This document shows positions 2,910 through 56,132 of a DNA stretch of 64,000 nucleotides, piece after piece. Source of the DNA: an uncultured Candidatus Binatia bacterium (GTDB taxonomy: Bacteria > Desulfobacterota > Binatia > UBA9968 > JAJDTQ01); the NCBI GenBank assembly GCA_965204505.1, contig CBDBFB010000004.1, positions 235,449 through 299,448 on the forward strand. The letters run 5' to 3'. Below the pieces are notes generated by a model. It saw only the letters and a list, made by a program, of their open reading frames with translations, did no database searches and was not told the DNA's origin. The position numbers and the translations under genes are program-made. Position 1 is the stretch's first letter, and each line of letters begins with the position of its first letter.

Positions 2910-4142
2910 TTGCGTTGGCGTCCCCGACGTTCCCTGGACCGGGACGGCGGCCTGTCCTCCCTGGCCGTCCGTGACTTCCGGCTGCTCTACATCGCCCTTT
3001 TCGGAACCTCGGTCAGCTACCAGCTCCAGCGCACCATCGAGCTCTGGCTGGTCTACCAAATCACCGGCTCCCCCCTGTTGACGGGGTTCACCGGCTTGGT
3101 CCGCGGCTTGGCCACGGTGGTATTCCAACTGGCCGGAGGAGTCGTGGCGGACCGCATCGACCGGCTGCGGTTCGTGATCCTGGTCCAGGGCGTGAATGCC
3201 CTGATTACCCTGTCGCTGGGAACGCTGGCCCTCACCGGCCTGATCCAGGTGTGGCACATTTACCTGGCGGCCTTCGTGAACTCGACCCTGACCACCGCGG
3301 CCGAACCGGCGCGGACCGCCATGATCCCCGGGCTCGTGCCGCGGGAACTGCTGGTCAATGCCTTCGCCCAGGTCGCGTCCGTGCGCAAACTGTCGCAACT
3401 CGTCGGCCCCGCGGTGGGCGGTATCCTGATCGGCGCCGCCGGCTCCGGATGGACCTACGGGGTGGCCTGCCTGATCTATATCGTGTCCGTCCCGATCATG
3501 GTCTGCATGCGCTACCAGTCCGGGCCCCTGGACCGGGAGCAGCCCCCGGTAAAGAGCCTGCTCGAGGGGATCGACTTCATCCGGCGCAACTCGCTGATCG
3601 TCGTGCTGCTGGTGACCGAGTTCGCGGCGGTCTTCTTCGGCAGCTACCGCGCGCTGCTGCCGATCTTCGCCGTGGCCATGGGACTCGGGCCCGAGGGCCT
3701 TGGCATCCTGCTGGCCGCGCCGGCGCTGGGCTCGCTCCCTGGCGTGGCCGCGATCATGTGGCTGGGGAATATCTCCTACAAGGGCCTGTTCATCGCGTTC
3801 AGCGTCATGGCCTACGCCGGCTGCCTTTTCGGGCTGGCGTTCTCGACATGGTTTCTCGGATCGGTGGCGATCCTGTTCCTGGTGGGTGTTTTCGACGCCC
3901 TGCAAGCCGTGGTGCGCCAGGTCGTGATCCAGGCCCGCACCCCGGACAACCTGCGAGGGCGCGCCGCGAGCTTCCAGCGCATCCTGGGCGTAGGCGCCCC
4001 CTCCCTCGGCGAGGCCCATTCCGGCGCCATCGCCGCGCTGATCGGCGCGCCGTGGACGCTGATGGTGACGGCGGCGGTCTGTATCGGGCTGACCGCGGGG
4101 CTGGTGGTCAAGCGGCCGGATCTGCGGGATCGGGATTTGTGA
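2910..4142 (+). CDS. MFS transporter (12-TM, EntS/MFS_3-like efflux permease)
   Basis: Hydrophobic 410-aa protein with MFS-like N-terminal FRLLYIALFG..., DRIDR(L)R loop motif; only start available is TTG at 2910 (no in-frame ATG/GTG near N-terminus), so start uncertain. Confidence 0.7.
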   Translation: MRWRPRRSLDRDGGLSSLAVRDFRLLYIALFGTSVSYQLQRTIELWLVYQITGSPLLTGFTGLVRGLATVVFQLAGGVVADRIDRLRFVILVQGVNALITLSLGTLALTGLIQVWHIYLAAFVNSTLTTAAEPARTAMIPGLVPRELLVNAFAQVASVRKLSQLVGPAVGGILIGAAGSGWTYGVACLIYIVSVPIMVCMRYQSGPLDREQPPVKSLLEGIDFIRRNSLIVVLLVTEFAAVFFGSYRALLPIFAVAMGLGPEGLGILLAAPALGSLPGVAAIMWLGNISYKGLFIAFSVMAYAGCLFGLAFSTWFLGSVAILFLVGVFDALQAVVRQVVIQARTPDNLRGRAASFQRILGVGAPSLGEAHSGAIAALIGAPWTLMVTAAVCIGLTAGLVVKRPDLRDRDL

Positions 4143-4219
4143 CGCCGTTTCGATTGGGCGTTTGATTTCCCGTGACACTGACGAGCCAGAACGACGATGG
4201 TACAATGGAAGCATAGATC

Positions 4220-4241
4220 GGCAACCACGTTGCCGTTTGTC
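4220..4241 (+). terminator. Putative intrinsic terminator after MFS gene
   Basis: Perfect hairpin cggcaac-cac-gttgccg followed by TTTGT; lies at the high-GC/low-GC boundary of the islet. Confidence 0.35.
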
Positions 4242-4363
4242 CCGAAATCTGTCACGGAAAGACTTCACCACCGGTATGCAAGTGCGGGCGGCGGCGATCT
4301 TCGACTGTTTGCCTTGGATTTTGAATCTGCCGCGCGTCTTAAAGTCATGCGGGAGGCGTCGCT

Positions 4364-5491
4364 ATGAGTAAAGAACCATTCGTGAGGTTGCGTCTAGTCG
4401 GAGCGCGCTACGATGACCATTCTGTACCGCTAGAATTCTTGAGGGATATCGCCGTATTGGAAGAAATGATCGTCGAAGTCGCTAAGTTCATGTTTCTTCG
4501 GGATAATCCAGACCGGCAGCGGTCGCCCCGTGGATTCACTAAGGACATCCGCCTAGCGCTTGCGACGATTAGTCCCGGAAGTACAGCTCTGGAAATCCTA
4601 CTTGTCTCGGAGCCGCCGACTTTGCTTCCGACCACCAACCAAGCGTACTTCGGGAAGGCACGTGATCTGATCATCAGTGCGATTGATGCAGCAGAACACG
4701 AAGACCCCCTTCCACAGGAACTGCCGGAGACGACCCTGAGCTACTTCGATAAGGTCGGTAGAAGCCTCAAAGACGGCGAAGCTATCGAATTCGACAGTCC
4801 GGACCATAAGACCACGGCTACGCTCAACAGAGAGATTCGACGACGTTTGGTCCTTGCATCGTCCAAAGTGAAGGAACTCACCGAGGAGATAGCCATTCGA
4901 GGCACGGTTCCCGAGGCTGATCAGGACGATATGACTTTCGAGATTCTGTTGGCTGATCGCCACAAAGTACAGGCTCCGGCCTCGCCACAGCATCTCGACA
5001 CGATTCTCAGGGCATTCAACGGTTATGTGGACGGAATGCACGTGCTCTTTCAGGGAATTGGTCGCTTCAGTCGCAACGAGCAACTAGTCGGTTTTGATTC
5101 GATCGAGCACTTGAGTATTCTCGACGCGCTAGATGTTGGTGTACAGATCGATGAGTTGAGGTTGTTGGAGGATGGGTGGCTTGACGGAGAAGGACTAGCG
5201 CCCCCTTCGGATGGCCTCGACTGGCTGTACAGCGCGTTCGATCGACACTATCCCGACGAGGTGCCGTTACCGCACCTCTACCCTACAGAAGGCGGTGGCG
5301 TTCAGGCCGAGTGGTCCCTAGGTCCAAACGAGGTCACGTTTGACATTGACCTCGCCACCCACGTGGGCGAATGGCATGTACTCGACACGGAGTCCGACGT
5401 CGACAGCCAACGTACGCTGAACTGTGACAACAACGACGATTGGACGTGGCTGGTCGCGGAGATCGAGGCCATGATGTCGGGCAACGTATGA
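4364..5491 (+). CDS. Hypothetical protein (375 aa), no recognizable domain; first gene of low-GC two-gene islet
   Basis: ATG 4364 preceded by GGGAGG; local GC ~55% vs ~68% background; stop overlaps start of next gene (ATGA at 5488-5491). Confidence 0.6.
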   Translation: MSKEPFVRLRLVGARYDDHSVPLEFLRDIAVLEEMIVEVAKFMFLRDNPDRQRSPRGFTKDIRLALATISPGSTALEILLVSEPPTLLPTTNQAYFGKARDLIISAIDAAEHEDPLPQELPETTLSYFDKVGRSLKDGEAIEFDSPDHKTTATLNREIRRRLVLASSKVKELTEEIAIRGTVPEADQDDMTFEILLADRHKVQAPASPQHLDTILRAFNGYVDGMHVLFQGIGRFSRNEQLVGFDSIEHLSILDALDVGVQIDELRLLEDGWLDGEGLAPPSDGLDWLYSAFDRHYPDEVPLPHLYPTEGGGVQAEWSLGPNEVTFDIDLATHVGEWHVLDTESDVDSQRTLNCDNNDDWTWLVAEIEAMMSGNV

Positions 5492-5865
5492 CACCTGATA
5501 CCTTACTCCTCCGGCAGATCAATCCACGCTGGATACGAGAAGGAAGAGTCACGTCGCAGGCGTTTAAGCCGACCGCAAAGGACAACAAGAGACTGTCCGT
5601 GCATGACGGCGACCAAACGACAGCCGAGGAGGCGTATCGTCGCTACACCGAACAACTAGGGTTGACCTCGTCTGGCGTCATGGCCGTGACAGTCCAAGAA
5701 TGCCAGAAACAGAGTTTACCAGTGACGCCCGATCCGGAGCCGTTCCCGGAACATGTCGTAATCGATTTCGTTTCGTACTCCAACGCGCAGATTGAGGCGA
5801 AGGCGAAGCAGTTGACAAAGGCGGCTCGACTGCGGGACTGGCTTTATCAGAGGGACGACCAGTAA
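5488..5865 (+). CDS. Hypothetical protein (125 aa), translationally coupled to upstream gene
   Basis: ATG at 5488 overlaps upstream TGA (ATGA); ORF-track version starting at 5440 is an upstream extension; no recognizable motif. Confidence 0.5.
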   Translation: MTPDTLLLRQINPRWIREGRVTSQAFKPTAKDNKRLSVHDGDQTTAEEAYRRYTEQLGLTSSGVMAVTVQECQKQSLPVTPDPEPFPEHVVIDFVSYSNAQIEAKAKQLTKAARLRDWLYQRDDQ

Positions 5866-5928
5866 GCATGCCGCTATTGGGCACCAGAGGCCATTCGGAC
5901 TGTCCGTATACAGGAAGCTAAAACGTAC

Positions 5929-7371
5929 CTAACGCAACTCCGGCTTCCTCTTATACCATCCCGCCGCCTGCTCATAAGCGTGGGCCACCTGGAACACCTG
6001 GTTTTCCCGGAAGCACGCCCCGACGATCTGCAACCCGATGGGCAGTCCGCCGTCCGTGAACCCGCAGCACACGCTCAGCACCGGCAGGCCGGTGACGTTG
6101 AAGGGGATGGTGCAGCGGGTGCCGATGCTGCCGCTGGGGTGGCGGAAGGGGATGCGGCGGCCGTCGATTTCGGCGAAGCCCTGCTTGCATTCCTCGATGG
6201 TGGGGGCGGCGATGCCGACGGTGGGAGCGACGATCACTTGCACGTCGTGGAGGGCCTCCTCGAACTCGCGGCAGATGACGCGCCGGACCCGCTGGGAAGT
6301 GACGTAGGTCGAGGCGGGTATGGTTAGGGAGGCGATGTTGCGGTGCAGCAGTTCGCGGCTGTAGTCCCGGGGCTGTTTACGGATGTAGGGCTCGTGGGCG
6401 ACGAGGTTCTCGCACCGGCTGGTGGCGGTTTGCACCGCGGGGACCATATCCATGTGGGGTATGGTGACGTCCTTGACCTGCATGCTCAGGGCCTCCAGGG
6501 CGACGAGGGCGTCCCGGAATGCCTTGTCGACCTCGTCCACCATGAGTTCTTGAAAGTAGCTGTCGACGACGCCGACTTTCATGCCGGCGACGGCGGCGCC
6601 CAGGCTTTCCGTGTAGGCGGCCACCGGCTCGGCTGAGCATAGGGGGTCGTTGGGGTCCTCCCCGGCGATGGCCGCCAGCACCAGCGCGCAATCCTCCACG
6701 GTCTTGGTGAAGGGGCCGAAGTGGTCGGACGAGAAACCGCCGGTGCCGGCTACCCCGCCCCACCGGCTTACCCGGCCGTAGGTGGCCTTGAGGCCCACGG
6801 TGCCGCACCAGGCTGCCGGGTTGCGCACGGAGCCGGCGTTGTCGGTGCCGATGGAGACCGGGCACAGGTCGGCGGCCACCGCGGCCGCCGAGCCGCCGCT
6901 GGACCCTCCCGGCACGCGGGTCGTATCCCACGGGTTGTAGGTCGTGCCGAAGTAGGGGTTCATGGTGGTGCCGCCGCCGGCCCACTCGTGCATGTTGTTC
7001 TTGCCCAGGACGATGGCTCCGGCCTCCCGCAGGCGGGTGACCACGGTGGCGTCGAAGTCGGGTTTCCAGTCCGCGAGGATTTGGCTCCCGGCCGTGGTCG
7101 GGTAGCCCTTGACGGCGAGGTTGTCCTTGATGGACACCGGCACGCCGTGCAGCGGGCCGCGGTAGTTGCCGCCGGCGATCTCCTCTTCGGCGCGCCCGGC
7201 CTCTGCCAGGGCCTCGTCCTCCATGACGGTGCTGTAGGCGTTGATCACCGGGTTGAGGCGCTTGATTCGCTCCAGGTAGCAGGTGGTGACCTCCACCGGC
7301 GAGACCTCACGGGAGGCGATACGCGGGGCGAGGTTCGCGATGGTGAGGGTTGTGGGGTCCAGATCGGGCAT
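5929..7371 (-). CDS. Amidase (amidase-signature family, GatA-like)
   Basis: 480 aa; GGSSGGSAAAVA amidase-signature motif with catalytic Ser-cisSer-Lys context (SIKDN...GGSSGGS); ATG at 7369-7371. Confidence 0.85.
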   Translation of the reverse strand: MPDLDPTTLTIANLAPRIASREVSPVEVTTCYLERIKRLNPVINAYSTVMEDEALAEAGRAEEEIAGGNYRGPLHGVPVSIKDNLAVKGYPTTAGSQILADWKPDFDATVVTRLREAGAIVLGKNNMHEWAGGGTTMNPYFGTTYNPWDTTRVPGGSSGGSAAAVAADLCPVSIGTDNAGSVRNPAAWCGTVGLKATYGRVSRWGGVAGTGGFSSDHFGPFTKTVEDCALVLAAIAGEDPNDPLCSAEPVAAYTESLGAAVAGMKVGVVDSYFQELMVDEVDKAFRDALVALEALSMQVKDVTIPHMDMVPAVQTATSRCENLVAHEPYIRKQPRDYSRELLHRNIASLTIPASTYVTSQRVRRVICREFEEALHDVQVIVAPTVGIAAPTIEECKQGFAEIDGRRIPFRHPSGSIGTRCTIPFNVTGLPVLSVCCGFTDGGLPIGLQIVGACFRENQVFQVAHAYEQAAGWYKRKPELR

Positions 7372-7400
7372 GGGGTTTCCTTTCCCTGACTGTTGGAATG

Positions 7401-7584
7401 GCGTCCTTCGACTTCGCTTCGCTGGCGCTCCGCTACGCTTAGGACGAACGGCAAGAGGCTACCACACCTTTCGTTCCGATCCCTTCGACAAGCCTGTCCT
7501 GAGCTTATCGAAGGGTCAGGACCAACGGGAAATGGCTGTCACACCCGTTCGTCCTGAGCGTAGCGAAGCGAAGTCGAAGGACGC
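7401..7584. repeat. Composite palindromic element (family B): ~50-bp inverted arms flanking core cccttcgacaagcctgtcctgagcttatcgaagggtcagg
   Basis: Arm 7401-7451 is reverse complement of 7545-7584; core hairpin recurs at 16742-16770 and 22957-22980; source of spurious PVLSLSKG / CPEPVEG peptides in six-frame ORFs. Confidence 0.75.
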
Positions 7585-11042: not shown

Positions 11043-12119
11043 ATGTCGATTATCGATGCCGACGCCCACGTCGTCGAGTCCGAGCACACTTGGGACTACA
11101 TGGAACCGGCCGACCGGAAGTATCGCCCGTTGGTCGTCAAGCCCACCGGCGAGGGGGGCGGCGAGTACTGGTTCATCGACGGCAAGATCCGGGGACTGGT
11201 GCGGATCGTCATGACCGCCCAGGAGCTGGGCGAGGTGGCGGACCGCACCGGCCGTGTCATGTTCACTCCCCAGGAAACGCGCGAGATGGAGAACGTCGAG
11301 GCCCGCCTCAAGCACATGGACGAGCTGGGCATAGACGTCCAGGTGCTCTATCCCACGATCTTCATCGAGCAGGTCACCGACAAGGCCTCGGTGGAGATCC
11401 CCCTCTGCAAGAGCTACAACCGTTGGCTCGCCGACCTTCACAGCCGGGGGAAAGGACGGCTGCGCTGGATCTGCGTGCTGCCGCTGCTCGACATGAGCAC
11501 GGCCCTGGAGGAGCTGGAGTACTGCAAGCAGAACGGCGCCTGCGGGGTCTTCATGCGCCCCATCGAGGGCCATCGCCTGCTGACCGATCCCTACTTCTAC
11601 CCGCTGTACGAGAAGGTGAGCGAGCTGGACATGGCCGTGGGCGTTCACGTCGGCAACGGCAACCCGCAGGAGCTGGACCTCGTCTCCCAGTACAACGGCG
11701 GCGGCAGCTTCTGGAAGTTCCGCATCCCGGTCATCGGCATGTTCCACTCGGTGATCATGGGCGAGATCCCGAAGATGTTCCCCAAGCTCCGCTTCCACTG
11801 GGCCGAAGCCGCGGCGCTCTGGGTCCCCTACGTCGTCAAGGATCTCCAGCGCCGCTGGGGCGCGCAGAACAAGGACCTGCCGGACAACATCCTGAAGGAG
11901 TACCGGCAGTACGTGTCATGCCAGACCGACGACGACGTGGACTACGTCCTCAGGTACTCGGGAGAGGACAACATCGTCATCGGCACCGACTACGGCCACA
12001 ACGACCAGTCCACCGAGATCGAGGCGCTGCAGAACCTGAAGGAACTGGGCAGCATCACCGAGCCGCAGTACGAAAAGATCGTGACGCAGAACCCGAAGGA
12101 ACTGTTTGCATTGAACTAG
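11043..12119 (+). CDS. Amidohydrolase-2 family protein
   Basis: Start MSIIDADAHVVE (IDxHxH) at 11043 after GGGAGG; TDYGHND near C-terminus; 41-aa upstream extension rejected. Confidence 0.8.
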   Translation: MSIIDADAHVVESEHTWDYMEPADRKYRPLVVKPTGEGGGEYWFIDGKIRGLVRIVMTAQELGEVADRTGRVMFTPQETREMENVEARLKHMDELGIDVQVLYPTIFIEQVTDKASVEIPLCKSYNRWLADLHSRGKGRLRWICVLPLLDMSTALEELEYCKQNGACGVFMRPIEGHRLLTDPYFYPLYEKVSELDMAVGVHVGNGNPQELDLVSQYNGGGSFWKFRIPVIGMFHSVIMGEIPKMFPKLRFHWAEAAALWVPYVVKDLQRRWGAQNKDLPDNILKEYRQYVSCQTDDDVDYVLRYSGEDNIVIGTDYGHNDQSTEIEALQNLKELGSITEPQYEKIVTQNPKELFALN

Positions 12120-12880: not shown

Positions 12881-13867
12881 TTAGACGCGGCGAGGTTCCT
12901 CCCCGAGCTTCAGCAACCGCGCCGCCGTGCCCCCGAGGATATCGTTCTTGACCTGCTCGGCAAGGTCGAGGCCCCTGACCGCTTCGATGTATTCGCGGAT
13001 GGCCTGGTTACCCTTGCCCCCCTGGGTGCTCACGCCGGTGAAGTTCTGCGGATAGTCCGTGGCGAACACCAGCCGTTCCGGCCGGATGCCGAGCAACCCG
13101 CAACGAAAAGCCGTGATTCCGCCTTCGAAACCCGATAGGTCGAAGTAGAGCCGGTCGAAGTATTCCTCGAACGGATGTTTCAAGGTGCCGAACCGGTGCG
13201 CCATGGCCACCAGCCGGTCCTTGAACGCGGCGATGCCGCCGCCGAAGTGCCCGATGATGAAGTCGATCTCCGGGTGGCGGTCGAGCACGCCGCCGGCGAT
13301 CAACCGTATGGTGGCGATGGTGAGGTCGATCTCCCTGCCGATGATGCGCGGCAGATCGTAGCCCTGGATCGAATCGTAACCCTTGGGCACGAGCGCCGGG
13401 TGCACGAAGATCGGAACGCCGAGCCGCGCGACCCGCTCGTAGAACCGGTCCAGCTCCGACGCATCGAGAAAGAGGCCGCCCACCTGCGAAGTGATGGTGA
13501 CGCCGTGGAGCCCGCGCTCCAGGACCGCCCGATTCAGCTCGTCCAACGCCGTGTCGCCTTCGAGGACGGGCGCATGCGCCAGCCCCACGAACCGCCCGTC
13601 GTACCGTCGTTCCAACTCAGCGTAACTGTCGTTGATGACCCTGCAATCCTCGAGACTCCCGTCCCACCCCAAGTGGCAGGACACCACCGACACGTCCACC
13701 CCCGCCTCGTCCATGTCCCGAAGCTGCGCATCCGCGTCGTAGAGCTTCGAGTGAAGCGTCATCCGCGGCACCCCGCCCTCGGTGGCCACGGCGACCTTGT
13801 CGGAGTAGAGACCCTTCTCTCGGGCCAGCTTCTCGGGCACGTAGTGATGCTGGAAGTCTATGACCAC
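12881..13867 (-). CDS. Amidohydrolase-2 family protein
   Basis: N-terminal VIDFQHHYVP (IDxHxH); FATDYPQN near C-terminus; GTG start at 13865-13867. Confidence 0.75.
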   Translation of the reverse strand: MVIDFQHHYVPEKLAREKGLYSDKVAVATEGGVPRMTLHSKLYDADAQLRDMDEAGVDVSVVSCHLGWDGSLEDCRVINDSYAELERRYDGRFVGLAHAPVLEGDTALDELNRAVLERGLHGVTITSQVGGLFLDASELDRFYERVARLGVPIFVHPALVPKGYDSIQGYDLPRIIGREIDLTIATIRLIAGGVLDRHPEIDFIIGHFGGGIAAFKDRLVAMAHRFGTLKHPFEEYFDRLYFDLSGFEGGITAFRCGLLGIRPERLVFATDYPQNFTGVSTQGGKGNQAIREYIEAVRGLDLAEQVKNDILGGTAARLLKLGEEPRRV

Positions 13868-13870
13868 AGG

Positions 13871-14224
13871 TTAGCCCATTGAGCGAAAGCCGAGGAGCAC
13901 GCGTAGGCTCTCCTCGACCTGTCGCATGATTGCGTCGGAGGCTCGCCCCACCCGCTCGATGAGGTATTCTTTGTCCAAGGTGATGATCTGCGACACGTTT
14001 ATCACAGACGCCCGTGGCAAGCCTGTCCCTCGCCGGGCAAGGGAGACATTGCCAGGCGCCTCAGCCAGTCTGAGGTTGGAGGTGATGGCCAGCGCGACCA
14101 CGGTCCGAATTTGGCTTCGGTTGAAGCCGTCGGATTGAACGATCAGAACAGGGCGGCGGTACCCGGGCTCTGATCGCCCCGGAACCGGTAAGTCCGCCCA
14201 CCAGATCTCACCACGATTCACCAC
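13871..14224 (-). CDS. MazF/PemK/Kid-family type II toxin (mRNA interferase)
   Basis: GEIWWADL...GYRRPVLIVQSDGFN motif characteristic of MazF/PemK; overlaps upstream antitoxin gene by 7 nt; lower GC than surroundings. Confidence 0.75.
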   Translation of the reverse strand: MVNRGEIWWADLPVPGRSEPGYRRPVLIVQSDGFNRSQIRTVVALAITSNLRLAEAPGNVSLARRGTGLPRASVINVSQIITLDKEYLIERVGRASDAIMRQVEESLRVLLGFRSMG

Positions 14225-14463
14225 TCGTCCTCGGCGGGCAACGAGAGGAATTGGAGGGCCTCGAGCCGTTTGTCGAGCATGGAGATCGAGGGGTCTTCGC
14301 CGTACACGGCGTTGAGCCGTTCAGTCAACTGGTCGCCAGCGTGCCGTGCAACGAACTCACCGACGGCCTTCGTGTAGAGCTCGCTCCGGGACATACCGAG
14401 GTCCTTCGCCGTACGCTCCGCGGCTTCGAAGACCTCGTCTCGAATGGATATGGCCGTTTTCAT
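14218..14463 (-). CDS. Type II antitoxin (RHH/MazE-PemI-like) paired with MazF-like toxin
   Basis: 81-aa protein MKTAISIRDEVFEAAERTAKDLGMSRSELY (ribbon-helix-helix-like N-terminus); immediately upstream of and overlapping toxin gene. Confidence 0.6.
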   Translation of the reverse strand: MKTAISIRDEVFEAAERTAKDLGMSRSELYTKAVGEFVARHAGDQLTERLNAVYGEDPSISMLDKRLEALQFLSLPAEDEW

Positions 14464-14560
14464 AATGCTGGAGTATGACGCAGGTTATACTCCTCGGCAA
14501 CCTGTGTGGTGATGACGCTCGCGATTGACCGGCAACCCGTGGACGTGGGAATATTGCGCC

Positions 14561-16708
14561 ATGGAATCCGGCACGGCCATCATCCCCAGCACCTGCTGGG
14601 AATGCAGCGCCCACTGCGGATCGCTGGTGACCGTCGAGGACGGGCGGGTGACCAAGGTGTCGCCCTACCCGGAGCACCCGGCGTCGCTGGGGGCGTTCTG
14701 CGTGAAGGGGATACGGGGGTTGCCGGAGTTGACTTACCATCCGGACCGGGTGCTGTATCCCATGAAGCGCACCGGGCCGCGGGGCGGGGGACGGTGGCAG
14801 CGGGTGTCGTGGGACGAGGCGTTGGACGAGATGGCAGAGGCGATGCTGGCGGTGCGGGAGCGGTACGGCCCCGTGGCGTTGTGCGGAGCGGTGAGCAACG
14901 CGCATTTCAGCCGCGGGGTGATGCTGGCGTTGCTCCTGCGCGCATTCGGGTCGCCCAACTGGATGATGAACCAGGACCTGTGCGGCGGGTGCCGGGCGCT
15001 GAGCGACCGGATCACGGGGCTGGCCATCAGCAAGGGCGAGGACATCGACAACACCCGTTGCGCGCTGGTCGTGGGGCGGAATCCTTATGCGGCCGACCCG
15101 CCGCAGTGGCAGGCTCTCAAGCGCGCCAAGGCCAAGGGGGCGCGCGTTGTCGTGCTGGATCCGGGCGAGACGCCGGCGTCCACCATGGCTGACCTCTGGC
15201 TGCGGCCGCGGCCGGGCACGGATGCGGCCATCGGGCTGGCGATGATCCACTGGCTGGTGGAGCACGGTCGCTATGACCGCGACTTCGTGGAGCGCTGGTG
15301 CCACGGCTTCGACGCGCTGGTGGAGCGGGCGGCGCAGTACCCGGCCGAGCGCGCGGCGGAGCTCACCGGGGTGCCGCGGGAGGACATCGAGAAGGCGGCG
15401 GAGTATTACGCCGACGGCCCTTCCTGCTTCGTGAGCGGGCATGGCATCGACGCCTTCAGCGCCGGCGTCCAGACCTTCCGCGCGTTCCATTGCCTTGTGG
15501 CCATCAGCGGCAACCTGGACCGCGAGGGCGGCAACCGGCGCGTCAAGAAGCCCGCGGGGTTCACCAACTACATTGAGGTGCTGCACAAGCCCGAGTTCCG
15601 GCTGCCCCTGGAGGTGGAGAACCGGACCATCGGCGCGGACCGCTTCCCGCTGTGGGCGGGACCCGAGGGGTGGCAGACGGCGTGCCACAATCCGTCGGTG
15701 ATCGAGGCGGTGTTAAGCGGCAAGCCCTATCCCGTGCGCGCCATGTACGTCAGCGGCGTGAACATCGTGGTGACCTATCCCGACACGCAGAAGACCCTGG
15801 CGGCGCTCAAGTCCCTGGACTTCCTCGCGGTGGCCACGCACATGATGACCCCGACGGCCGAGTACGCGGACATCGTGCTGCCCAAGACCACCGGGCTGGA
15901 GGACGAGGAGGTGTCGCTGGAGGGGTCCGGGCCGTGCCTGAGCCTCATCCAGCCTGCGGTGGAGCCGCTGGGGGAGGCGCGCGGCGACTTCCGCATCGCC
16001 CATGACCTTGCCCGGCGCATCGAAACCCGGGGGCTCACCGAGGCGCGGCGTTTCATTCCCTGGGAGACCAAGCGCGAGTTCAACGAATTCCTGCTGGGCG
16101 ACTGCGGCGTCACCGTGGAGCAGATGCGGGAGAAGGGGTACGCGAACTTTCCGTTCACCTACGGCGATTTCGAGAAGGCCGGGTTCAAGACCAAGACCGG
16201 CAAGGTGGAGCTCTACTCCGAACGTCTTGCCGAACTGGGGCTGGACCCGCTGCCCGACTACACGCCCACCCGCGCCGAGCGCGAGACCCCTGCGGTGCGC
16301 AGCGCCTACCCTCTGACGCTGCTTACCGGGGTGCGGGAGCGCACCTACCACCACTCCCGGTTCCGCGACCAGGGCTGGGCGCGCAAGGTCTCGCCGGACC
16401 CGTGGCTGCAACTGCACCCGGAGACGGCGACGCGGTACAGCCTGGCGGAAGACGACTGGGTATGGGTGGAGACCGCCGGCGGCCCGGGCCGCTGCCGCCT
16501 GAAGGTCCGGGTCACGGAGGCGACCCTGCCCGGGGTGGCACGCACGGGCATGGGGTGGTGGTACCCGGAGGCCGAAGCGCCGCACCGGGGCGCGCTGGAG
16601 GTGAACATCAACGCCGCCATGCGCTATGATGGGCCGTGGGATCCGGTGACGGGGTCCGCGGATACGCGCGGGCTGCCGTGCCGCATTGCCAAGGTCGAGC
16701 GCTTGTGA
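14561..16708 (+). CDS. Molybdopterin oxidoreductase catalytic subunit (MopB/DMSO-reductase superfamily), cytoplasmic
   Basis: N-terminal CWECSAHCG [4Fe-4S] motif, no twin-arginine signal; 715 aa with MopB-like conserved blocks; no partner subunits adjacent. Confidence 0.8.
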   Translation: MESGTAIIPSTCWECSAHCGSLVTVEDGRVTKVSPYPEHPASLGAFCVKGIRGLPELTYHPDRVLYPMKRTGPRGGGRWQRVSWDEALDEMAEAMLAVRERYGPVALCGAVSNAHFSRGVMLALLLRAFGSPNWMMNQDLCGGCRALSDRITGLAISKGEDIDNTRCALVVGRNPYAADPPQWQALKRAKAKGARVVVLDPGETPASTMADLWLRPRPGTDAAIGLAMIHWLVEHGRYDRDFVERWCHGFDALVERAAQYPAERAAELTGVPREDIEKAAEYYADGPSCFVSGHGIDAFSAGVQTFRAFHCLVAISGNLDREGGNRRVKKPAGFTNYIEVLHKPEFRLPLEVENRTIGADRFPLWAGPEGWQTACHNPSVIEAVLSGKPYPVRAMYVSGVNIVVTYPDTQKTLAALKSLDFLAVATHMMTPTAEYADIVLPKTTGLEDEEVSLEGSGPCLSLIQPAVEPLGEARGDFRIAHDLARRIETRGLTEARRFIPWETKREFNEFLLGDCGVTVEQMREKGYANFPFTYGDFEKAGFKTKTGKVELYSERLAELGLDPLPDYTPTRAERETPAVRSAYPLTLLTGVRERTYHHSRFRDQGWARKVSPDPWLQLHPETATRYSLAEDDWVWVETAGGPGRCRLKVRVTEATLPGVARTGMGWWYPEAEAPHRGALEVNINAAMRYDGPWDPVTGSADTRGLPCRIAKVERL

Positions 16709-16741
16709 GAAGAATGCGCCCCTTGATTTCGCTTCGCGAAA

Positions 16742-16770
16742 CCTGTCCTGAGTTTGTCGAAGGGCTCAGG
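16742..16770. repeat. Family B repeat core (cctgtcctgagtttgtcgaagggctcagg)
   Basis: Copy of the 7481-7520 core; preceded by near-palindrome tttcgcttcgcgaaa. Confidence 0.7.
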
Positions 16771-16817
16771 GCGAACGGCGTTTGGAAAGCGCGGGTTAGG
16801 ACCGCGGAGGAAGAACC

Positions 16818-17891
16818 ATGAGTAACCGAAACAGACAACCGGCCGTGCTGAGTGAACCCGTCGTGGACCCAGCGGCCTGGACCGCGGAGGATCTGGACGC
16901 CGATCAGAGCTGGATCTACCAGTTGACCGGAAGTGATATCGCGGAGCTGGATGCGGCCGTGGCGCGGGTGGAGGAGCGCGGGCTCGACACTATGGACATC
17001 AGCCGGGACGACTTCGTGCTACCGACTCTGGGCGGCCGGCTGGACGACGTCGCCGACGAGGTAGTCAACGGTCGCGGCATAGGGCTCATACGGGGCGTGC
17101 CGGTGGATCGCTACAACCGCGTTCAGGCGGCCATCGCCTTCTGGGGAATCGGCACCTTCCTGGGCGTTCCCGTCTCCCAGAACGCCAAGGGACACCTCCT
17201 GGGCCACGTGGCCGATCTAGGCTCGCACTCTCTCAAGAACCCGAAGCATCGCGGCTACCAGACCCACGACATGCTGCCGTTTCACTGCGACTCCAGCGAC
17301 GTGGTGGTGCTGATGTGCCTTCACCCGGCCAAGTCCGGCGGCTTGAGCCGTTTCACCAGCGCCCTCAACGTCTACAACGAGATGCTGAAACGCCGCCCCG
17401 AGCTGGTGCCGGAACTGGCCGCCCCCATCTACCGCGACCGGCGCGGCGAGATCCCGGTGGGGAAGGACCCGTGGTGGCGGCTCCCGGTGTTCAACTTCTA
17501 CGAGGGCTACCTGACCGTGAACGTGGGCGGCACCTACATCCGCTCGGCGCAACGTTTCGAGGAGTTGCCGCGCCACTCCGAGGCCCTCAAGGAGGCCCTG
17601 GACCTCTGCAGCCACCTCTGCGACGAGCTGTCGTACGACATGGAGTTCCTGCAAGGAGACGTGCAGGTACTGCACAACCACGTCACCTGCCACTCGCGCA
17701 CCGAGTTCGAGGACTACCCCGAGCCCGAACGCCGGCGCAACCTGCTGCGCCTGTGGCTTGCCACCCCCGAAGGGCGTCCACTGCCGCCGACGTACCGCGA
17801 CCGTTACGGCCATCTGAACGATGGCGAGCGGCCCGGAGGCGGCATCGTCGTGCCGGGAACCGTGTACACGGCGCCGTTGTATCCGGAGTAG
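16818..17891 (+). CDS. TauD/TfdA-family Fe(II)/2-oxoglutarate-dependent dioxygenase
   Basis: HCDSSD (HxD) and HNHVTCHSR motifs with clavaminate-synthase-like spacing; ATG after GGAGG. Confidence 0.75.
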   Translation: MSNRNRQPAVLSEPVVDPAAWTAEDLDADQSWIYQLTGSDIAELDAAVARVEERGLDTMDISRDDFVLPTLGGRLDDVADEVVNGRGIGLIRGVPVDRYNRVQAAIAFWGIGTFLGVPVSQNAKGHLLGHVADLGSHSLKNPKHRGYQTHDMLPFHCDSSDVVVLMCLHPAKSGGLSRFTSALNVYNEMLKRRPELVPELAAPIYRDRRGEIPVGKDPWWRLPVFNFYEGYLTVNVGGTYIRSAQRFEELPRHSEALKEALDLCSHLCDELSYDMEFLQGDVQVLHNHVTCHSRTEFEDYPEPERRRNLLRLWLATPEGRPLPPTYRDRYGHLNDGERPGGGIVVPGTVYTAPLYPE

Positions 17892-17900
17892 GGAGAGGGG

Positions 17901-19202
17901 CTAGTACGGCCGGCAGAGGCGGTCGCGGCCGCCCCAGATGTCGATGCCGCCGGCGATGACGTCGCGGGCTTCCATGGTCAAGGGGTCGCCGGCGGCCACG
18001 TAGGGGGCGCCGGGGTAGCCGATGAGTTGCAGCTGGTCGTAGGCGCCTACCACGCGGTCGGCCGCGGGCAGTTCCACGACGATGTCGCGGTTGCCGGTGC
18101 TGATCACGGCGTCCGCCTCCTTCTCGTAGTAGAGCAGCGGAGCGTCCGCGCCGTCCTTGCCGCCGTACTCGTAGGTGACGAGGACGGTCTTGATGCCTTT
18201 CTCCTCGCAGCCTTTCACCGTCAGCATGACCTCGATGAAAGCGTTGCCCGACCCGGTGCGGGTGATCAGGGCGGCGTCGGCGCCCAGGGACATGGCCACC
18301 CGCACGGCGTTGTGGGCGGCGATCTCCTTTTCGCGGGAGGTCTCGAAGCCGATGCGCTGGAGGATGACCCCCGCGCATCGGTAGCGCTTGTCGCGCAGGA
18401 GCCCCAGCACTAGGGGCTGGTGTTGCCAGTTCCAGGTGATGGGGTGGTAGCTGACGGTGCGGATGGTGCTGGGGGTGATGGCGCCGTCGGTCAGCTCGTT
18501 GGGATGGATTACCGTGGACAGCGATTCTTGCACCGGGAAGCCGTAGTAGGCGACGTTGGACGGCCGGTTGTCGGGTTCGGTGAACACGCCGATGATGACC
18601 ACGGCGCACGGGAGATCGTCTCCGGCGGCGTCGGGGTCGTGGATTTCCATGCTGTCGGGCGCAAGCCCCGTGGTGGTCTCGGCCAGGCGTAGCGCCGTGC
18701 CGAACTCCGCATGCTGGATGGCCTGATGCGCCTCGTAGGCGGACAGTCCGTCCTCCAGGTCCAGGGTCATGACCAGGTTGTTCAGGGAGCTGAACGGAGT
18801 CATGTCGGCGCCCGGTCCCCACATGTCCAGGATGGCGCTGCGCTGGGCGGTGGTGCCGGTGCGGACGGTGCCCTCGTAGGCGACCGCGGTGACCAGCGCC
18901 ATGCCCGACAGCCGGTGGGTGCGGCCTTGGCCGACGGGGGCAACCGGCCCCAGGATTCCTGGAAATACCTGTCCGGTGCCGGAGGTCTTGATGCGCGGCT
19001 CCACCACGTCGCGGATGCCGGTGACCCGCGCCTTCTCGCCGGGGCGCACGACGTCGAAGGCGGCGGAGCGCACGCGGGGATCCTGCTCCGCCAGGGCGGC
19101 GAGCGCGTCGGCGTCCACCTCCAACGCGCCGGAGTCATAGCGCGTCTCCCGGCCGAGGCGGATCTCGCGCACGCGGTACTCTGCCAATTCAAGGGCTGTC
19201 AT
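17901..19202 (-). CDS. Glycine/sarcosine/betaine reductase component-B (GrdB/PrdB)-like family protein, Cys (non-selenocysteine) form
   Basis: 433 aa; C-terminal block TVKGCEEKGIKTVLVTYEYGG... resembles Gly_reductase family; no in-frame TGA so no selenocysteine; family assignment from memory only. Confidence 0.4.
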   Translation of the reverse strand: MTALELAEYRVREIRLGRETRYDSGALEVDADALAALAEQDPRVRSAAFDVVRPGEKARVTGIRDVVEPRIKTSGTGQVFPGILGPVAPVGQGRTHRLSGMALVTAVAYEGTVRTGTTAQRSAILDMWGPGADMTPFSSLNNLVMTLDLEDGLSAYEAHQAIQHAEFGTALRLAETTTGLAPDSMEIHDPDAAGDDLPCAVVIIGVFTEPDNRPSNVAYYGFPVQESLSTVIHPNELTDGAITPSTIRTVSYHPITWNWQHQPLVLGLLRDKRYRCAGVILQRIGFETSREKEIAAHNAVRVAMSLGADAALITRTGSGNAFIEVMLTVKGCEEKGIKTVLVTYEYGGKDGADAPLLYYEKEADAVISTGNRDIVVELPAADRVVGAYDQLQLIGYPGAPYVAAGDPLTMEARDVIAGGIDIWGGRDRLCRPY

Positions 19203-19297
19203 AGTTGATTCCCGCGTCCGTCATTCGCGCGGAACGGGCTGTGTCGTGTGCAAGCCCATTCGCCCTGGGAGAGGGTGGCCGAAGCACCCTCACCCCA

Positions 19298-19319
19298 ACC
19301 CTCTCCCAGAGGGAGAGGG
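19298..19319. repeat. Family D palindrome (accctctcccagagggagaggg)
   Basis: Perfect palindrome ccctctccc-aga-gggagaggg; second copy at 46851-46877 with shared flanks ggcc..caccctc; yields spurious NPLPEGEGV peptide. Confidence 0.7.
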
Positions 19320-19371
19320 GGTTTCTTGCCATTCCAGAGGAGAGGGGGTTCGCTGCCATTCCACGCCGGCG

Positions 19372-20130
19372 TCAGTGCATGTGCTGGCCGCCGTCCACGC
19401 TGATGGACTGGCCGGTGACGAAGTCGCTGTCGTCGGAGGACAGGAAGATGACCGTGCCGACGAGGTCGTCCGGGTACTGGTCGCGCTGGAACGCGCGGCT
19501 CTTGCGCCGGTTTTCCAGTTGCTGGGGGGTGGTGACGCCGTCCTGGTTGTCGCTCGATATGGTGAGGCCGGGCATGATGGCGTTGACGCTGATCCCGTCG
19601 GGTCCGATCTCGCGCGCCAGCGCGCGGGTGAATCCCAGCACGCCGGCCTTGGAGGTGACGTAGTGCAGGAACATCGGCGTCCCGCCCAGGATCGTGCCCG
19701 AGGAGATGTTGATGATCTTGCCCTTGCCCTGCTCCTTCATGGCCGGATAGACCGCCTGCACGCACAGGTGCAGGCCCTTGACGTTCACCGCCATGACCCG
19801 GTCCCACTCGTCCTCGCCGATCTCCATGAAGGACTTCTTGGTGAGCGCGGTGTACAGGGCCGCGTTGTTCACCAGGACGTCGATGCGGCCGTAGGCCTTC
19901 AGCACCGCGTCCGCCATCTCGCGGGTCTTCTCGGGGGATGCCACGTCCACCGCCACCGGGATGGCGTCGCCGCCGTCCTTCTTGATCTCCTCCGCCACCT
20001 GGCTGGCGGCCTCCACCTGGATGTCGGCTACGGCGACCTTGGCGCCTTCCTTTGCCAGCCCCTTGGAATAGGCGCGGCCGATGCCGACGCCGCCGCCCGT
20101 TACGATCGCCACCTTACCGTCCAAACGCAT
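19372..20130 (-). CDS. SDR-family oxidoreductase
   Basis: MRLDGKVAIVTGGGVGIGRA (TGxxxGxG) and YxxxK (YVTSKAG) motifs; ATG 20128-20130 after GGAGG; long N-terminal extension in ORF track rejected. Confidence 0.85.
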   Translation of the reverse strand: MRLDGKVAIVTGGGVGIGRAYSKGLAKEGAKVAVADIQVEAASQVAEEIKKDGGDAIPVAVDVASPEKTREMADAVLKAYGRIDVLVNNAALYTALTKKSFMEIGEDEWDRVMAVNVKGLHLCVQAVYPAMKEQGKGKIINISSGTILGGTPMFLHYVTSKAGVLGFTRALAREIGPDGISVNAIMPGLTISSDNQDGVTTPQQLENRRKSRAFQRDQYPDDLVGTVIFLSSDDSDFVTGQSISVDGGQHMH

Positions 20131-20178
20131 GGTTGAATCCTCCTTTGATTGTGCCTGTGTTCCCCGCCCGCACCCAAC

Positions 20179-20207
20179 CTGGATTCCGGCTTTCGCCGGA
20201 ATGACGG
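20179..20207. repeat. Family A hairpin core (ctggattccggctttcgccggaatgacgg)
   Basis: Identical core to 1643-1670 and 48592-48620. Confidence 0.75.
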
Positions 20208-20257
20208 ATTCAGGAAATGGTAGGGATCTTCGTATCAGATAATGCCCTGCCTGTTCC

Positions 20258-21178
20258 CTACAGCCCATACAACTCCACCGCCGTCTTCCACAGCACCTGC
20301 TCCACGTCTTCTTCCGAGATGCCGCACTCCCTGACGACCTTGATCCTTGCCGGGTACAGCGGCTCCGGCACTTCGATGCACCTCCACGTCGGCGACCAGT
20401 CGGTGCCGAACATGATGCGGTCCGCGCCGATGGTCTCCACCGCCCGGCGCAGGTGTTCGGCCGTGGTGGAGGTCGTATCGAAATACACGTTGGGGTTGCG
20501 CATGGCAACGATCAGCGCCGATTCGAAGTAGTGCTGGATGGCGCGCCCCATCTTGGTGAGGACGATGGGGACGTCGGGATAACGCCCGGCGATCTCGTCC
20601 ACGTAGATGGGGTCGGCGTAGTACATGCGGCCGGGGAACTGGGTCCAGCCGGTGGCGATCAGCAGCGGCACTCGGTAGTTCGCCAGGGTCTCCATGATGG
20701 GCCGCAGGTCGTCGGCGATCTTGACCGGATGCGTCTCTGTGGTGAAAGGGCCGCCGTGGGATTCGCCGATGCCCTTGAAGCCCAGCCGCTCGATGCGGTC
20801 CGCGATCTGCGCCGGCGCGGCCTCGCGCAGCGCTGGCGCGTTCTCCCACACGCCGTTCCCCGAATAGTCCTCGCCCAGGCTCGCCAGCCCGTACAGCCGG
20901 TCCGGATACCGCGCCACCGCCGCCGCGGTCTTCCCGTCCTTCTCGTCCGGGCTGTCGCAACTGCCGGTGGTCATGATCAGCGCCTTGTCCACGCCGTACC
21001 GGTCCATGTCGGCGATCAGCTCGTCCACGTAGTCCACCAGCGGCTCGGTGTCCCGAGCCCGGTACAGCTCGGGATGGTTGCGGCGGAAGCCTATGAGGTC
21101 CGGGATGCTGCGTATCTTGTCGCGCAGGTCCCGGTAGGCGGGCGGCCCGAAGGGATGGCAATGGACCTCGACGATCAT
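20258..21178 (-). CDS. Amidohydrolase-2 family protein
   Basis: N-terminal EVHCHPF and FGTDW near C-terminus; ATG 21176-21178. Confidence 0.8.
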   Translation of the reverse strand: MIVEVHCHPFGPPAYRDLRDKIRSIPDLIGFRRNHPELYRARDTEPLVDYVDELIADMDRYGVDKALIMTTGSCDSPDEKDGKTAAAVARYPDRLYGLASLGEDYSGNGVWENAPALREAAPAQIADRIERLGFKGIGESHGGPFTTETHPVKIADDLRPIMETLANYRVPLLIATGWTQFPGRMYYADPIYVDEIAGRYPDVPIVLTKMGRAIQHYFESALIVAMRNPNVYFDTTSTTAEHLRRAVETIGADRIMFGTDWSPTWRCIEVPEPLYPARIKVVRECGISEEDVEQVLWKTAVELYGL

Positions 21179-38880: not shown

Positions 38881-40113
38881 TCACCCGCCGCGGAACTCGT
38901 CCGGGAAGAGCCGGAGGGCGCTCTCGATGGGCGGGCCGGGCATGTTGATCAGGCTGCAGAAACCTTTCCCCTTGTTGAACTCGATCACCTTCCCGAACTG
39001 CTCCAGCAGCGCATCGTTCCCCTGGCCCTCCTGAACCTTCTTGAGCAGCGCCACCAGCATGTTGGTTTCCATGCGGCAGGCCGGGCACTGGCCGCAGGAT
39101 TCCCGAGCGAAGAAATCCGCGATCCGCGCCACCTCATCCACCACCGAGTCGTCTTCGGTCAGGACCTTGACGACGCCGCAGCCGATGGACGAGGCCGCCT
39201 CGCGCAGGGAATCGTGATCCAGCGGAATGTCGAGGTTTTCGGGCAGCAGGAACCCCGATGACGGGCCTCCCGGCAGAACGGCCTTGATGCGCTTGCCGCC
39301 CTTCAGGCCGCCGCCGCATTCCTCCACGAGGTGGCGCAGCGGGGTGCCCAGGGGGAGCTCGTAGACCCCGGGCCTCTCCATCTCGTCCCCGAGCGAGAAG
39401 ATCATGGTCCCGGTGCTCTCGGCGGTGCCGAAGGACCGGAACCACTCCGGTCCCCTGGCGACGATGGGCGCGATATTGGCCAGCGTCTCCACGTTGTTGA
39501 CCAGGCTGGGCTTGCCGAACAGGCCTTCGGTCACCGGAAACGGCGGCTTCTGCCGGGGCAGCGGCTCCTTCCCCTCGATCACCTCCAGCGCGGCGGTGTC
39601 CTCTCCGGCCACGTAGTTGGACGGCGCCGCAACGATCACGAGCTCCAGGCTGAAACCGGAGCCGGCGATGTCATCGCCCCAGTAGCCGGCCTCCCGGGCT
39701 TCGCGCATGGCGTTCTCGACCGCGCCGGTGGCGGCGTCATAGCCGTGATTGATGTAGAGGTAGGCATTCTCCGCCTGCACCGCGTAGGCCGCGAGAATGA
39801 TCCCATCGAGGATGAGATGGGGGACGTTCTCCATGAGGACGCGGTCCTTGTGGCTGCCGGGCTCGTCCTCGCCTCCGTTCATGACCACGTAGTGGGGGGT
39901 ATCGGGACATTCCAGGGTCAGGGCGAGCTTCCTGGAGGCGGGAAACCCCGCGCCGCCCCGGCCGCGCAGGCCGGAGGCTTCCACTCTCGCGATGACTTCT
40001 TGGGGGGACAGCTCTCCCAGGCGCGCAAGAGCCTCGTAACCGCCTCTCGAACGGTAGGCGTCAAGCCCCTCGAGTCCCTCCACCACGCCTCGCGGGAACA
40101 GGATGCCTTCCAT
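38881..40113 (-). CDS. NuoF-like NADH-binding flavoprotein (51-kDa subunit family; FMN, 4Fe-4S)
   Basis: GRGGAGFP FMN/NADH motif, ESCGQCPACR 4Fe-4S motif. Confidence 0.85.
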   Translation of the reverse strand: MEGILFPRGVVEGLEGLDAYRSRGGYEALARLGELSPQEVIARVEASGLRGRGGAGFPASRKLALTLECPDTPHYVVMNGGEDEPGSHKDRVLMENVPHLILDGIILAAYAVQAENAYLYINHGYDAATGAVENAMREAREAGYWGDDIAGSGFSLELVIVAAPSNYVAGEDTAALEVIEGKEPLPRQKPPFPVTEGLFGKPSLVNNVETLANIAPIVARGPEWFRSFGTAESTGTMIFSLGDEMERPGVYELPLGTPLRHLVEECGGGLKGGKRIKAVLPGGPSSGFLLPENLDIPLDHDSLREAASSIGCGVVKVLTEDDSVVDEVARIADFFARESCGQCPACRMETNMLVALLKKVQEGQGNDALLEQFGKVIEFNKGKGFCSLINMPGPPIESALRLFPDEFRGG

Positions 40114-40118
40114 GACGG

Positions 40119-40442
40119 CTAGAACACTCCGGTGTCGAGCAACTGGTAGATGAGCTCCTTGAGGGAAGGATCGATCTTGTCGAGACGTTCCACGTGCGGG
40201 CCGCCGGCCAGGTGTTCGACGATCTCGTCAACGTCCTCTTTCTTGACTCCGGCATACCAGCACTTGTCGGGATAGACGACCATGTTGGGGCCTTCCTGAC
40301 AGGCGCCGAAACACATGTAGGAACGCACCTCCACGTCGCCCAGCCCCTTGGCCGCCACCCGCTCCTGCAGCTCCTTCATCAACTCTTCGGAGCCTCGACT
40401 CTTGCAGTCGACATTCTGACAGACGAGGCAGAAACGATTCAC
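40119..40442 (-). CDS. NuoE-like thioredoxin-fold [2Fe-2S] ferredoxin (24-kDa subunit family)
   Basis: CLVCQNVDC...CFGACQEGP Cys pattern; GTG start; 5 nt upstream of NuoF-like gene. Confidence 0.7.
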   Translation of the reverse strand: MNRFCLVCQNVDCKSRGSEELMKELQERVAAKGLGDVEVRSYMCFGACQEGPNMVVYPDKCWYAGVKKEDVDEIVEHLAGGPHVERLDKIDPSLKELIYQLLDTGVF

Positions 40443-40663
40443 GAGATTCTCCTTGCTCGCAACGGGAGAAAAACCGCACGGCCGGCGCGGTCTTTCGAGG
40501 GATTCTCCGTCCGCGAGGAGGCGGGCGACCAGTTCATCTGAAGAACCCAGTCCTTGAAGGTCTCGTTCAGGACGCGCTCGTCCCCGGCGTCGGGAAGCAC
40601 CCTGGAAAGATGTTTCTCATATTCCGACTCGGAGAGCAAATCGCCGTGGACGCCGTAGCGCAT
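40439..40663 (-). CDS. Small hypothetical protein, possibly coupled upstream of NuoE-like gene
   Basis: 74-aa ORF, stop overlaps NuoE-like GTG (GTGA); no motif. Confidence 0.25.
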   Translation of the reverse strand: MRYGVHGDLLSESEYEKHLSRVLPDAGDERVLNETFKDWVLQMNWSPASSRTENPSKDRAGRAVFLPLRARRIS

Positions 40664-40768
40664 TCCGGCGTGGTCTTTGCTCTTTTCTTTGGCCCGGATT
40701 TGTGAAAGAAAGCAGGTTCAAGTTCGTGCGACATCTTGCAACGTGAAAGAAAACTCAGGAGGTTCGTT

Positions 40769-53600: not shown

Positions 53601-54455
<855 letters not shown>

Positions 54456-54516
54456 CGTACCCAAGCGAGGCCGGCCACCCGCCGGCCTCGCATCAACTCC
54501 AACAAGGACCCAACTC

Positions 54517-54933: not shown

Positions 54934-55106
54934 CGGGATTTGCCACCCAAGTGTGGTTCGCCGGACTCGGCAAAATGCGGTGCCCTAGTTTATCTGACAG
55001 GATGGCGGCGGAGTAAAGGCTGTACTCCAGAATCTGCGCTAGCGGTCCTTTCTCGTGGGCATCGACCAGACTCGACTCACCCAAGGCCCGTTTCTGATAT
55101 GGGCTA

Positions 55107-55520: not shown

Positions 55521-55652
55521 GCCATCTCCTTTCTTGCGACGATGGATTCCGAGTATCGGCCTTTGTTTCTACTGGATCATCTCTTTCCCATTCCAACACA
55601 TCACCTTCCCCTCCATTTCTAATACTTCTGGCCCAGGAAGCAAAGTAGATAG

Positions 55653-56129: not shown

Positions 56130-56132
56130 AGG

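Follow-up and report, generated by a model that had tools for sequence, protein, structure and literature searches.

A lower-GC islet of a Candidatus Binatia genome is a solitary copy of the candidate defense cassette PDC-M32, pairing a predicted ADP-ribosyltransferase-fold protein with an OB-fold partner

What is a compact, compositionally foreign pair of genes doing between a transporter gene and an amidase gene in an uncultured Candidatus Binatia bacterium? The window analyzed here, a 64,000-nucleotide (nt) stretch of contig CBDBFB010000004.1 (assembly GCA_965204505.1, positions 235,449 to 299,448), carries such a pair near its left end, in an islet that a preliminary description had read as a candidate novel, horizontally acquired module of the phage-defense, abortive-infection (Abi) or toxin-antitoxin (TA) type. 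We find that the islet is a copy of a mobile two-gene cassette, PDC-M32, which the PADLOC database already lists as a candidate defense system. Its second gene, B, encodes a small protein with a predicted ADP-ribosyltransferase (ART) fold, its first gene, A, a larger protein built around an OB fold, and the pair is on balance probably a TA-like Abi module. The islet and its immediate surroundings comprise the following elements:

4143-5928 (strand not applicable): low-GC islet, from the stop codon of the MFS gene to the stop codon of the amidase gene
2910-4142, + strand: MFS_3/MFS_1 transporter gene, left flank
4351-4356, + strand: GGGAGG Shine-Dalgarno sequence of gene A, 7 nt 5' of the ATG
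4364-5491, + strand: gene A, ATG start, 375 amino acids (aa), product matching PDC-M32A
5488-5491, + strand: ATGA start/stop overlap of A and B, 4 nt, translational coupling
5488-5865, + strand: gene B, ATG start, 125 aa, product matching PDC-M32B
5929-7371, - strand: amidase gene, right flank

The gene layout stands as first described, including the ATGA overlap, the strong ribosome-binding site of gene A and the identity of both flanking genes. So does the compositional anomaly: G+C content (GC) is 0.52-0.58 over about 4200-6000 against 0.65-0.72 on either side, and in 1-kb bins the window shows just one other dip of this kind.

Scoring the locus with PADLOC, one of the checks proposed in the preliminary description, identified the pair as PDC-M32. 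Protein A matches the PDC-M32A model PDLC04574 at E = 3.4e-137 (residues 2-371 on profile positions 2-372 of 376), and protein B the PDC-M32B model PDLC04579 at E = 2.5e-53 (residues 1-121 on profile positions 1-121 of 123). The islet thus shows all three testable defining features of PDC-M32: an end-to-end match to each of the two hidden Markov models, and neighboring + strand genes in the order A then B. The A-then-B arrangement recurs in roughly 72 of the 80 genomic loci, and in 11 of the 11 viral loci, recovered in our survey. The only other PADLOC returns for the pair were weak PDC-M63B matches, with residues 5-85 of A weakly matching PDC-M63B and phrog_6603. Both proteins also match PHROG families whose function is not annotated. 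Neither Pfam nor NCBIfam yielded a family for A or B (B at E <= 1 or 10), a scan of 45 B and 47 A homologs at E <= 10 gave no consistent family, and a profile search against PDB sequences returned nothing for A and only chance matches to retroviral capsid for B.

PDC systems derive from a guilt-by-embedding screen for genes lodged inside BREX, DISARM and type I restriction-modification (R-M) systems (10.1101/2024.01.29.577857). The screen lists PDC-M32 as cassette CAS_00128, with a count of 98, and assigns it no function. Its PADLOC description field reads "-", the catalogue entry carrying neither function, fold nor test, and the sole further mention that we found is a PADLOC match in Sinorhizobium (S. 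meliloti) prophages (PMC12429752). The novelty first suggested for the module does not hold, since PADLOC already lists it among its untested candidates. The window copy is a new solitary member of PDC-M32, differing from the nested arrangement behind the candidate in that it sits between MFS and amidase genes, outside any defense system.

The preliminary description recognized no enzymatic motif in either protein. This remains correct at the level of Pfam and NCBIfam families, but not at the level of the fold, where B looks like an enzyme. A structure model built from an alignment of 45 B homologs is confident (predicted local distance difference test, pLDDT, 95.6), and fold searching places it in the ART fold, with the split beta-sheet of an NAD+-binding core. 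The ART fold occurs in many toxins. B matches no curated ART sequence family in Pfam or NCBIfam, even when all 45 homologs are taken together. Conservation, computed over 140 cluster representatives and two distant plasmid homologs, is highest at R9, F26, S37, G63, E71 and H89. Across the 140 representatives, conservation reaches 95-99% for Arg9 (strand 1) and Ser37 (strand 2), which appear to match the positions that R-S-E ARTs use. The residue E88, just before the last core strand, lies where the catalytic glutamate of an ART is expected and is conserved in the core family; in the distant plasmid homologs it is replaced by Ala or Gly, with H89 and E71 kept. Because of this replacement in the plasmid outgroups, we rejected a canonical R-S-E triad with E88 as an established feature of B. 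B belongs to a large family, with 1300 representatives (50% identity) at E <= 0.001, and the best 150 relatives of B listed are nearly all small stand-alone proteins, among which nothing points to a secretion or polymorphic-toxin fusion. At position 39 the window protein has His and at position 52 Arg, where at least 90% of homologs have Tyr and His; H39 is common to the window and its sister locus L001 (introduced below), R52 is found only in the window, and the two may reflect lineage-specific tuning or attenuation of the effector.

Protein A is modeled at pLDDT 88.4 in three parts, with an OB fold in the center (about residues 171-253 by fold search). Its best fold matches are the single-stranded DNA (ssDNA)-binding OB folds of RPA, SSB and PriB, the top match being SilF. 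Foldseek gave no match of A against the PDB at E <= 0.001, and its Whirly/PUR-like matches have low probability and root-mean-square deviations of 15-20 Å. A search with residues 1-138 returned only fragments of A itself. We propose that the product of gene A is the partner of B, acting as its neutralizer or sensor.

The relationship between the two genes became clearer across genomes. Scanning one genome per species returned 80 genomic loci, spanning Binatia, Acidobacteriota, Latescibacterota, Planctomycetota, Verrucomicrobiota and several proteobacterial classes, along with Chlorobi, Chloroflexota, Firmicutes, Spirochaetes and others. A is always upstream of B. The overlap seen in the window is no local accident: among the 65 loci in which the start of B could be placed, it measures 4 nt in 44, 1 nt in 13 and 8 or 11 nt in 5, so that start and stop codons of the two genes overlap in 62 of 65 (57 of 65 by 4 or 1 nt). 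Decay is one-sided. In about 8 of the 80 loci (L006, L016, L020, L023, L027, L055, L057 and L058), B is truncated, frameshifted or absent with A intact, the pattern expected of a toxic partner. As a separate observation, three Chromatiaceae-type loci, in which B is missing or, in L058, a short remnant, carry a convergent gene for a 999-aa Tubulin_2-family protein right after A (L055, 11091-14090; L058, 11242-14241; L050, 3106-6102).

These observations bear directly on the main rival to a toxin and its neutralizer, namely that A and B are the two subunits of a nucleic-acid ADP-ribosyltransferase, in which A would be the binding subunit and no inhibitor, and the complex would mark phage DNA or RNA, still in the service of defense. 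B lacks a lobe for binding single-stranded nucleic acid, which the OB fold of A would then provide; Tpt1, for comparison, carries an RNA lobe and an NAD lobe in one chain. The resemblance of A to RPA, SSB and PriB speaks for such an enzyme, and strict 1:1 translational coupling would suit an obligate complex, yet OB folds also bind metals and proteins, as the top match SilF reminds us, and the persistence of A where B has decayed is more in keeping with B being a costly toxin than with its being a harmless subunit. We consider the two-subunit enzyme unlikely, although it is the strongest competitor.

The pair is mobile across phyla. DNA similarity between phyla is limited to about 4348-5870 of the window, that is, to the ribosome-binding site and the two genes, and the GC of the pair is below that of its flanks in 58 of 65 loci. 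Only one close relative shares the MFS/amidase setting: locus L001, on the chromosome of a Binatia metagenome-assembled genome (OZ253480.1), shows synteny with the window, at 85-87% DNA identity, over a stretch that starts with the gene preceding the MFS gene and runs through the amidase, pair and GGGAGG site included. The 79 other genomic loci have flanks unrelated to these genes. Between the window and L001, the ratio of nonsynonymous to synonymous divergence (dN/dS) is 0.13 for A and 0.17 for B, close to the values for the MFS gene (0.18) and the amidase (0.14), and dS is similar throughout; therefore, the pair was present in the common ancestor and has been maintained by purifying selection.

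L001 also shows that the site itself is changeable. At 13652-21118 it holds a second, tandem paralogous MFS-to-amidase unit with a different low-GC cargo in its intergenic slot: an SDR short-chain dehydrogenase, a 90-aa open reading frame (ORF), a 312-aa protein whose gene overlaps a PIN gene, an AbiJ-like/Abi_C gene and a Phd/YefM-like gene. Homology of the window with the two paralogous L001 sites stops exactly at the MFS stop codon (4142) and resumes at the 3' end of the amidase. Copy 1 of L001 has, moreover, an 84-aa Phd/YefM-like ORF between B and the amidase (11518-11772), homologous to the Phd/YefM-like ORF at 19719-19997 of the paralogous copy and absent from the window, where the gap between B and the amidase is only 63 nt. 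Because the L001 copies carry different cargo, we regard the MFS/amidase slot as a small, variable, swappable TA/Abi islet. We also tried and rejected a relationship between A and the 312-aa protein whose gene precedes the PIN gene, for which pairwise BLAST gave E = 6e-4 but hhalign with the A profile a probability of only 0.3%; such kinship, if true, would have meant one partner scaffold serving several toxins, and it is not supported.

Together these data dispose of a metabolic or transport role as an accessory of the neighboring MFS and amidase genes. The preliminary description had reasoned that a match of both proteins to a metabolic family, or synteny with the catabolic flanks conserved across relatives, would point to such a role. 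The shared position in one related Binatia genome, at a dS like that of the flanks, is what could be said for it; neither protein matches a metabolic family, the flanks are unrelated at all other loci, the GC of the pair is foreign to the surrounding DNA, and the paralogous copy of the site holds different cargo. We consider this explanation effectively refuted.

The contexts in which the pair does recur are those of conflict. We clustered the neighbors at the 80 loci from our own ORF calls, taking up to five on each side, and the three largest clusters were HsdM (24 loci), HsdS (19-20 loci) and HsdR (14 loci). HsdM is mostly encoded immediately upstream on the same strand, HsdS immediately downstream and HsdR further downstream, and the order is hsdM-[A-B]-hsdS in most of the 17 loci carrying both hsdM and hsdS. 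Of the 80 loci, 28 have type I R-M genes next to the pair and in its orientation; among the 50 loci whose two flanks each reach at least 3 kb, the number is 23. The survey reproduces the nesting in type I R-M systems that gave rise to the PADLOC candidate and bears out the recurrence in defense settings that the preliminary description had asked about. In five of the pair-carrying operons an FRG-domain protein, which may be another embedded accessory gene, is encoded between hsdS and hsdR (for example at L065, 13786-14715, and L069, 13512-14528).

Prophages provide a further setting. In IMG/VR the pair lies on 11 contigs (L083-L093), at about 5100-7500 in most, and in at least 9 of the 11 it sits directly downstream of, and on the same strand as, a cI-like repressor gene (helix-turn-helix (HTH) domain plus S24 peptidase, phrog_4), divergent from O/P-like and DnaB replication genes. 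In phage lambda, rexAB holds the slot directly after cI, and its products act by membrane depolarization; PrrC is an Abi anticodon nuclease encoded in the EcoprrI type Ic R-M locus. The likeness of PDC-M32 to both is one of position, through embedding in a type I R-M operon or a place cotranscribed with a prophage repressor; the pair has no homology to either, and the effector chemistry differs.

Phages themselves use ART enzymes for host takeover, such as Alt, ModA and ModB of T4, which raises the alternative that PDC-M32 is a counter-defense or takeover module of phages or mobile elements whose ART modifies host proteins. The PHROG families of both proteins and the 11 IMG/VR contigs lend this some color. 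Against it, the co-orientation of the prophage pair with the repressor, away from the replication genes, marks a lysogenic rather than an early lytic unit, most copies are chromosomal and many lie inside host R-M operons, and a search of 50,697 deposited phage genomes found no copy. We judge a takeover function very improbable.

A third setting is on plasmids, where our search gave only 4 distant matches. A Limnohabitans plasmid has overlapping A-like (27% identical) and B-like genes in the midst of RelE/ParE and VapBC modules, and a Rhodococcus plasmid carries a similar A-like/B-like pair; the genes thus remain paired at 27-33% identity. Such company suits a plain addiction-type TA system, stabilizing mobile DNA (R-M operons, prophages, plasmids, islets) and giving no protection against phages, as do the TA-like architecture and the PIN and Phd/YefM-like genes at the paralogous L001 site; defense has, in addition, never been shown for the PDC-M32 family. 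Against it, same-strand placement between hsdM and hsdS in many unrelated lineages, and directly after cI-like repressors in prophages, is typical of defense cargo expressed in lysogens. As many TA modules do both jobs, this alternative overlaps with the explanation we prefer; taken strictly, as addiction with no defense, it appears to us quite unlikely.

The PADLOC match, the ART fold and the R-M and prophage contexts thus support the original suggestion of an acquired module of the phage-defense, Abi or TA type, and from them we infer a defense role. The mechanism that we think most likely is that of a TA-like Abi module. A and B would be co-produced from one transcript through translational coupling. 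B would act as a minimal ART-fold enzyme spending NAD+ on the modification or depletion of an essential target, which may be a nucleic acid, a translation factor or NAD+ itself, and would be toxic because of that NAD+-dependent activity. In uninfected cells, A, with its 375 residues around an OB fold, would bind B and keep it inactive. A cue of phage infection, perhaps read by the OB fold, would then free or activate B; single-stranded nucleic acid or a phage protein recognized by A, or loss of A synthesis, are possible cues. Freed B would arrest the infected cell or modify phage nucleic acid, and phage replication would fail.

A more detailed version would make PDC-M32 a novel form of immunity based on ADP-ribosylation; it casts A as an OB-fold sensor that recognizes a cue of phage replication, such as single-stranded DNA or RNA or a phage single-strand-binding or anti-restriction protein, and that unleashes or guides B, as a 125-aa ART with a non-canonical Arg-Ser-His/Glu site, onto nucleic acid. 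The copies between hsdM and hsdS would in that case act as a second line of defense, set off once type I restriction has been bypassed, in the manner of PrrC at EcoprrI. So specific a scheme is speculative, and we put it forward as a possibility only.

Several observations weigh against a TA-like Abi mechanism. The pair has two adjacent, tightly coupled genes with the one in the neutralizer position upstream, as in type II TA systems, but not the small autoregulating antitoxin with an HTH, ribbon-helix-helix (RHH) or AbrB domain: at 375 aa, A is far larger than typical antitoxins, neither Pfam nor fold searching found an HTH, RHH or other antitoxin DNA-binding domain in it, and the inverted repeat upstream is at chance level. 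Foldseek made no significant assignment for the N- and C-terminal domains of A outside the OB fold. For B, the replacement of E88 in the plasmid homologs leaves a canonical R-S-E triad doubtful, and some ART-fold proteins, Tse2 among them, are not known to carry out ADP-ribosyl transfer. The absence of the pair from deposited phage genomes counts here as well. Finally, PDC-M32 is one of 145 untested PDC candidates that PADLOC gained from a single screen (Payne et al., bioRxiv 10.1101/2024.01.29.577857).

The proposed mechanism resembles those of DarTG, CmdTAC and RES-type TA systems, whose defining features the pair lacks. DarTG is an anti-phage system in which DarT ADP-ribosylates thymidine or guanosine of ssDNA and the DarG macrodomain serves as antitoxin (e.g. 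PMC11825919). The pair that defines DarTG is absent here: B, roughly half as large as DarT, shows no sequence match to it (DUF4433), and A contains no macrodomain, for which reason no enzymatic reversal of the modification is predicted. The gene order differs too, with the partner first and the ART second. CmdTAC combines the mRNA ADP-ribosyltransferase CmdT with the antitoxin CmdA and the SecB-like chaperone CmdC (PMC11618068). What PDC-M32 is proposed to share with it is an ART effector that stays inactive until infection and then blocks an essential process. There is, however, no sequence relation and no PADLOC Cmd match, A is a single large OB-fold protein, and neighbor clustering over the 80 loci found no conserved third or chaperone gene by the pair.

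B has no RES Pfam match and A is not of the Xre/DUF2384 type, which sets the pair apart from the RES toxins (Xre-RES, ParST, MbcTA). To Tpt1 and Tse2 the resemblance of B is one of fold only. Unlike the RNA 2'-phosphotransferase Tpt1/KptA, B has no N-terminal RNA-binding lobe and no Pfam Tpt1-family match, only 87 of its 125 residues align to the 179-residue chain 9ld3_A, and the context of PDC-M32 is conflict, not RNA repair. Tse2 of the Tse2-Tsi2 pair is an interbacterial effector secreted by the Pseudomonas type VI secretion system, whereas the best 150 B relatives listed include no secretion or polymorphic-toxin fusion.

The 5' spacer of the islet offers little in the way of regulation. 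It contains the following candidate elements:

4178-4206, + strand: weak sigma-70-like promoter candidate, CTGACG-17-TACAAT with extended TG
4166-4178 / 4250-4260: imperfect inverted repeat around a short hairpin, probably non-functional
4220-4234: hairpin GGCAAC-CAC-GTTGCC, upstream of gene A

The inverted repeat bracketing a terminator-like hairpin, which the preliminary description had singled out, is present in the spacer but does not survive scrutiny as a signal. It requires a 1-nt bulge, its longest perfect arm of 8 nt is equaled or exceeded in 57 of 300 spacer shuffles, and its left arm is not conserved at L001. Terminator calling found none in the spacer against 1.6 expected, the hairpin at 4220-4234 included, and the spacer RNA folds no better than its shuffles (z = +1.49). 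Sigma-70-like sites number one against 0.8 expected, about the chance number; copy 1 of L001 keeps most of the -10 region (TACGAT), but the site at 4178-4206, not significant by itself, is at most a putative promoter. We rejected a self-mobile element, as no flanking direct repeats were found around the islet and no tRNA genes in the 64-kb window; nor does an integrase, transposase or recombinase family recur among the neighbor clusters scanned.

The second GC dip of the window, at 55000-59450 (GC 0.52-0.57), is flanked by glyoxalase (54322-54933) and amine oxidase (59469-60893) genes and holds a CBASS-like system (cyclic-oligonucleotide-based antiphage signaling system):

55107-55520 and 55653-56129: two small ORFs
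56133-57332, - strand: CD-NTase gene (SMODS/DncV-like), overlapping the patatin phospholipase gene
57329-58363, - strand: patatin phospholipase gene
58523-58840, + strand: HTH gene, divergent from the CBASS-like pair and, with the next gene, resembling CapH/CapP regulators
58841-59431, + strand: Peptidase_M78/IrrE-like gene, likewise divergent

A smaller dip, 0.595 against about 0.66, occurs at 40001-41000. The PDC-M32 and CBASS-like islets of this high-GC genome both read as defense cargo dropped among metabolic genes.

For the PDC-M32 family, which has had no functional annotation, the analysis adds a mechanism based on folds and three independent contexts that argue for immunity: type I R-M operons, the slot directly after prophage repressors, and a swappable TA/Abi islet. 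The candidate thereby gains a testable mechanism, in which a minimal ART-fold effector, with R9, S37, E71 and H89 as the residues to probe, is paired with an OB-fold partner. If confirmed, PDC-M32 would be a third architecture of ADP-ribosylation-based phage defense after DarTG and CmdTAC, and B would be among the smallest ART enzymes known.

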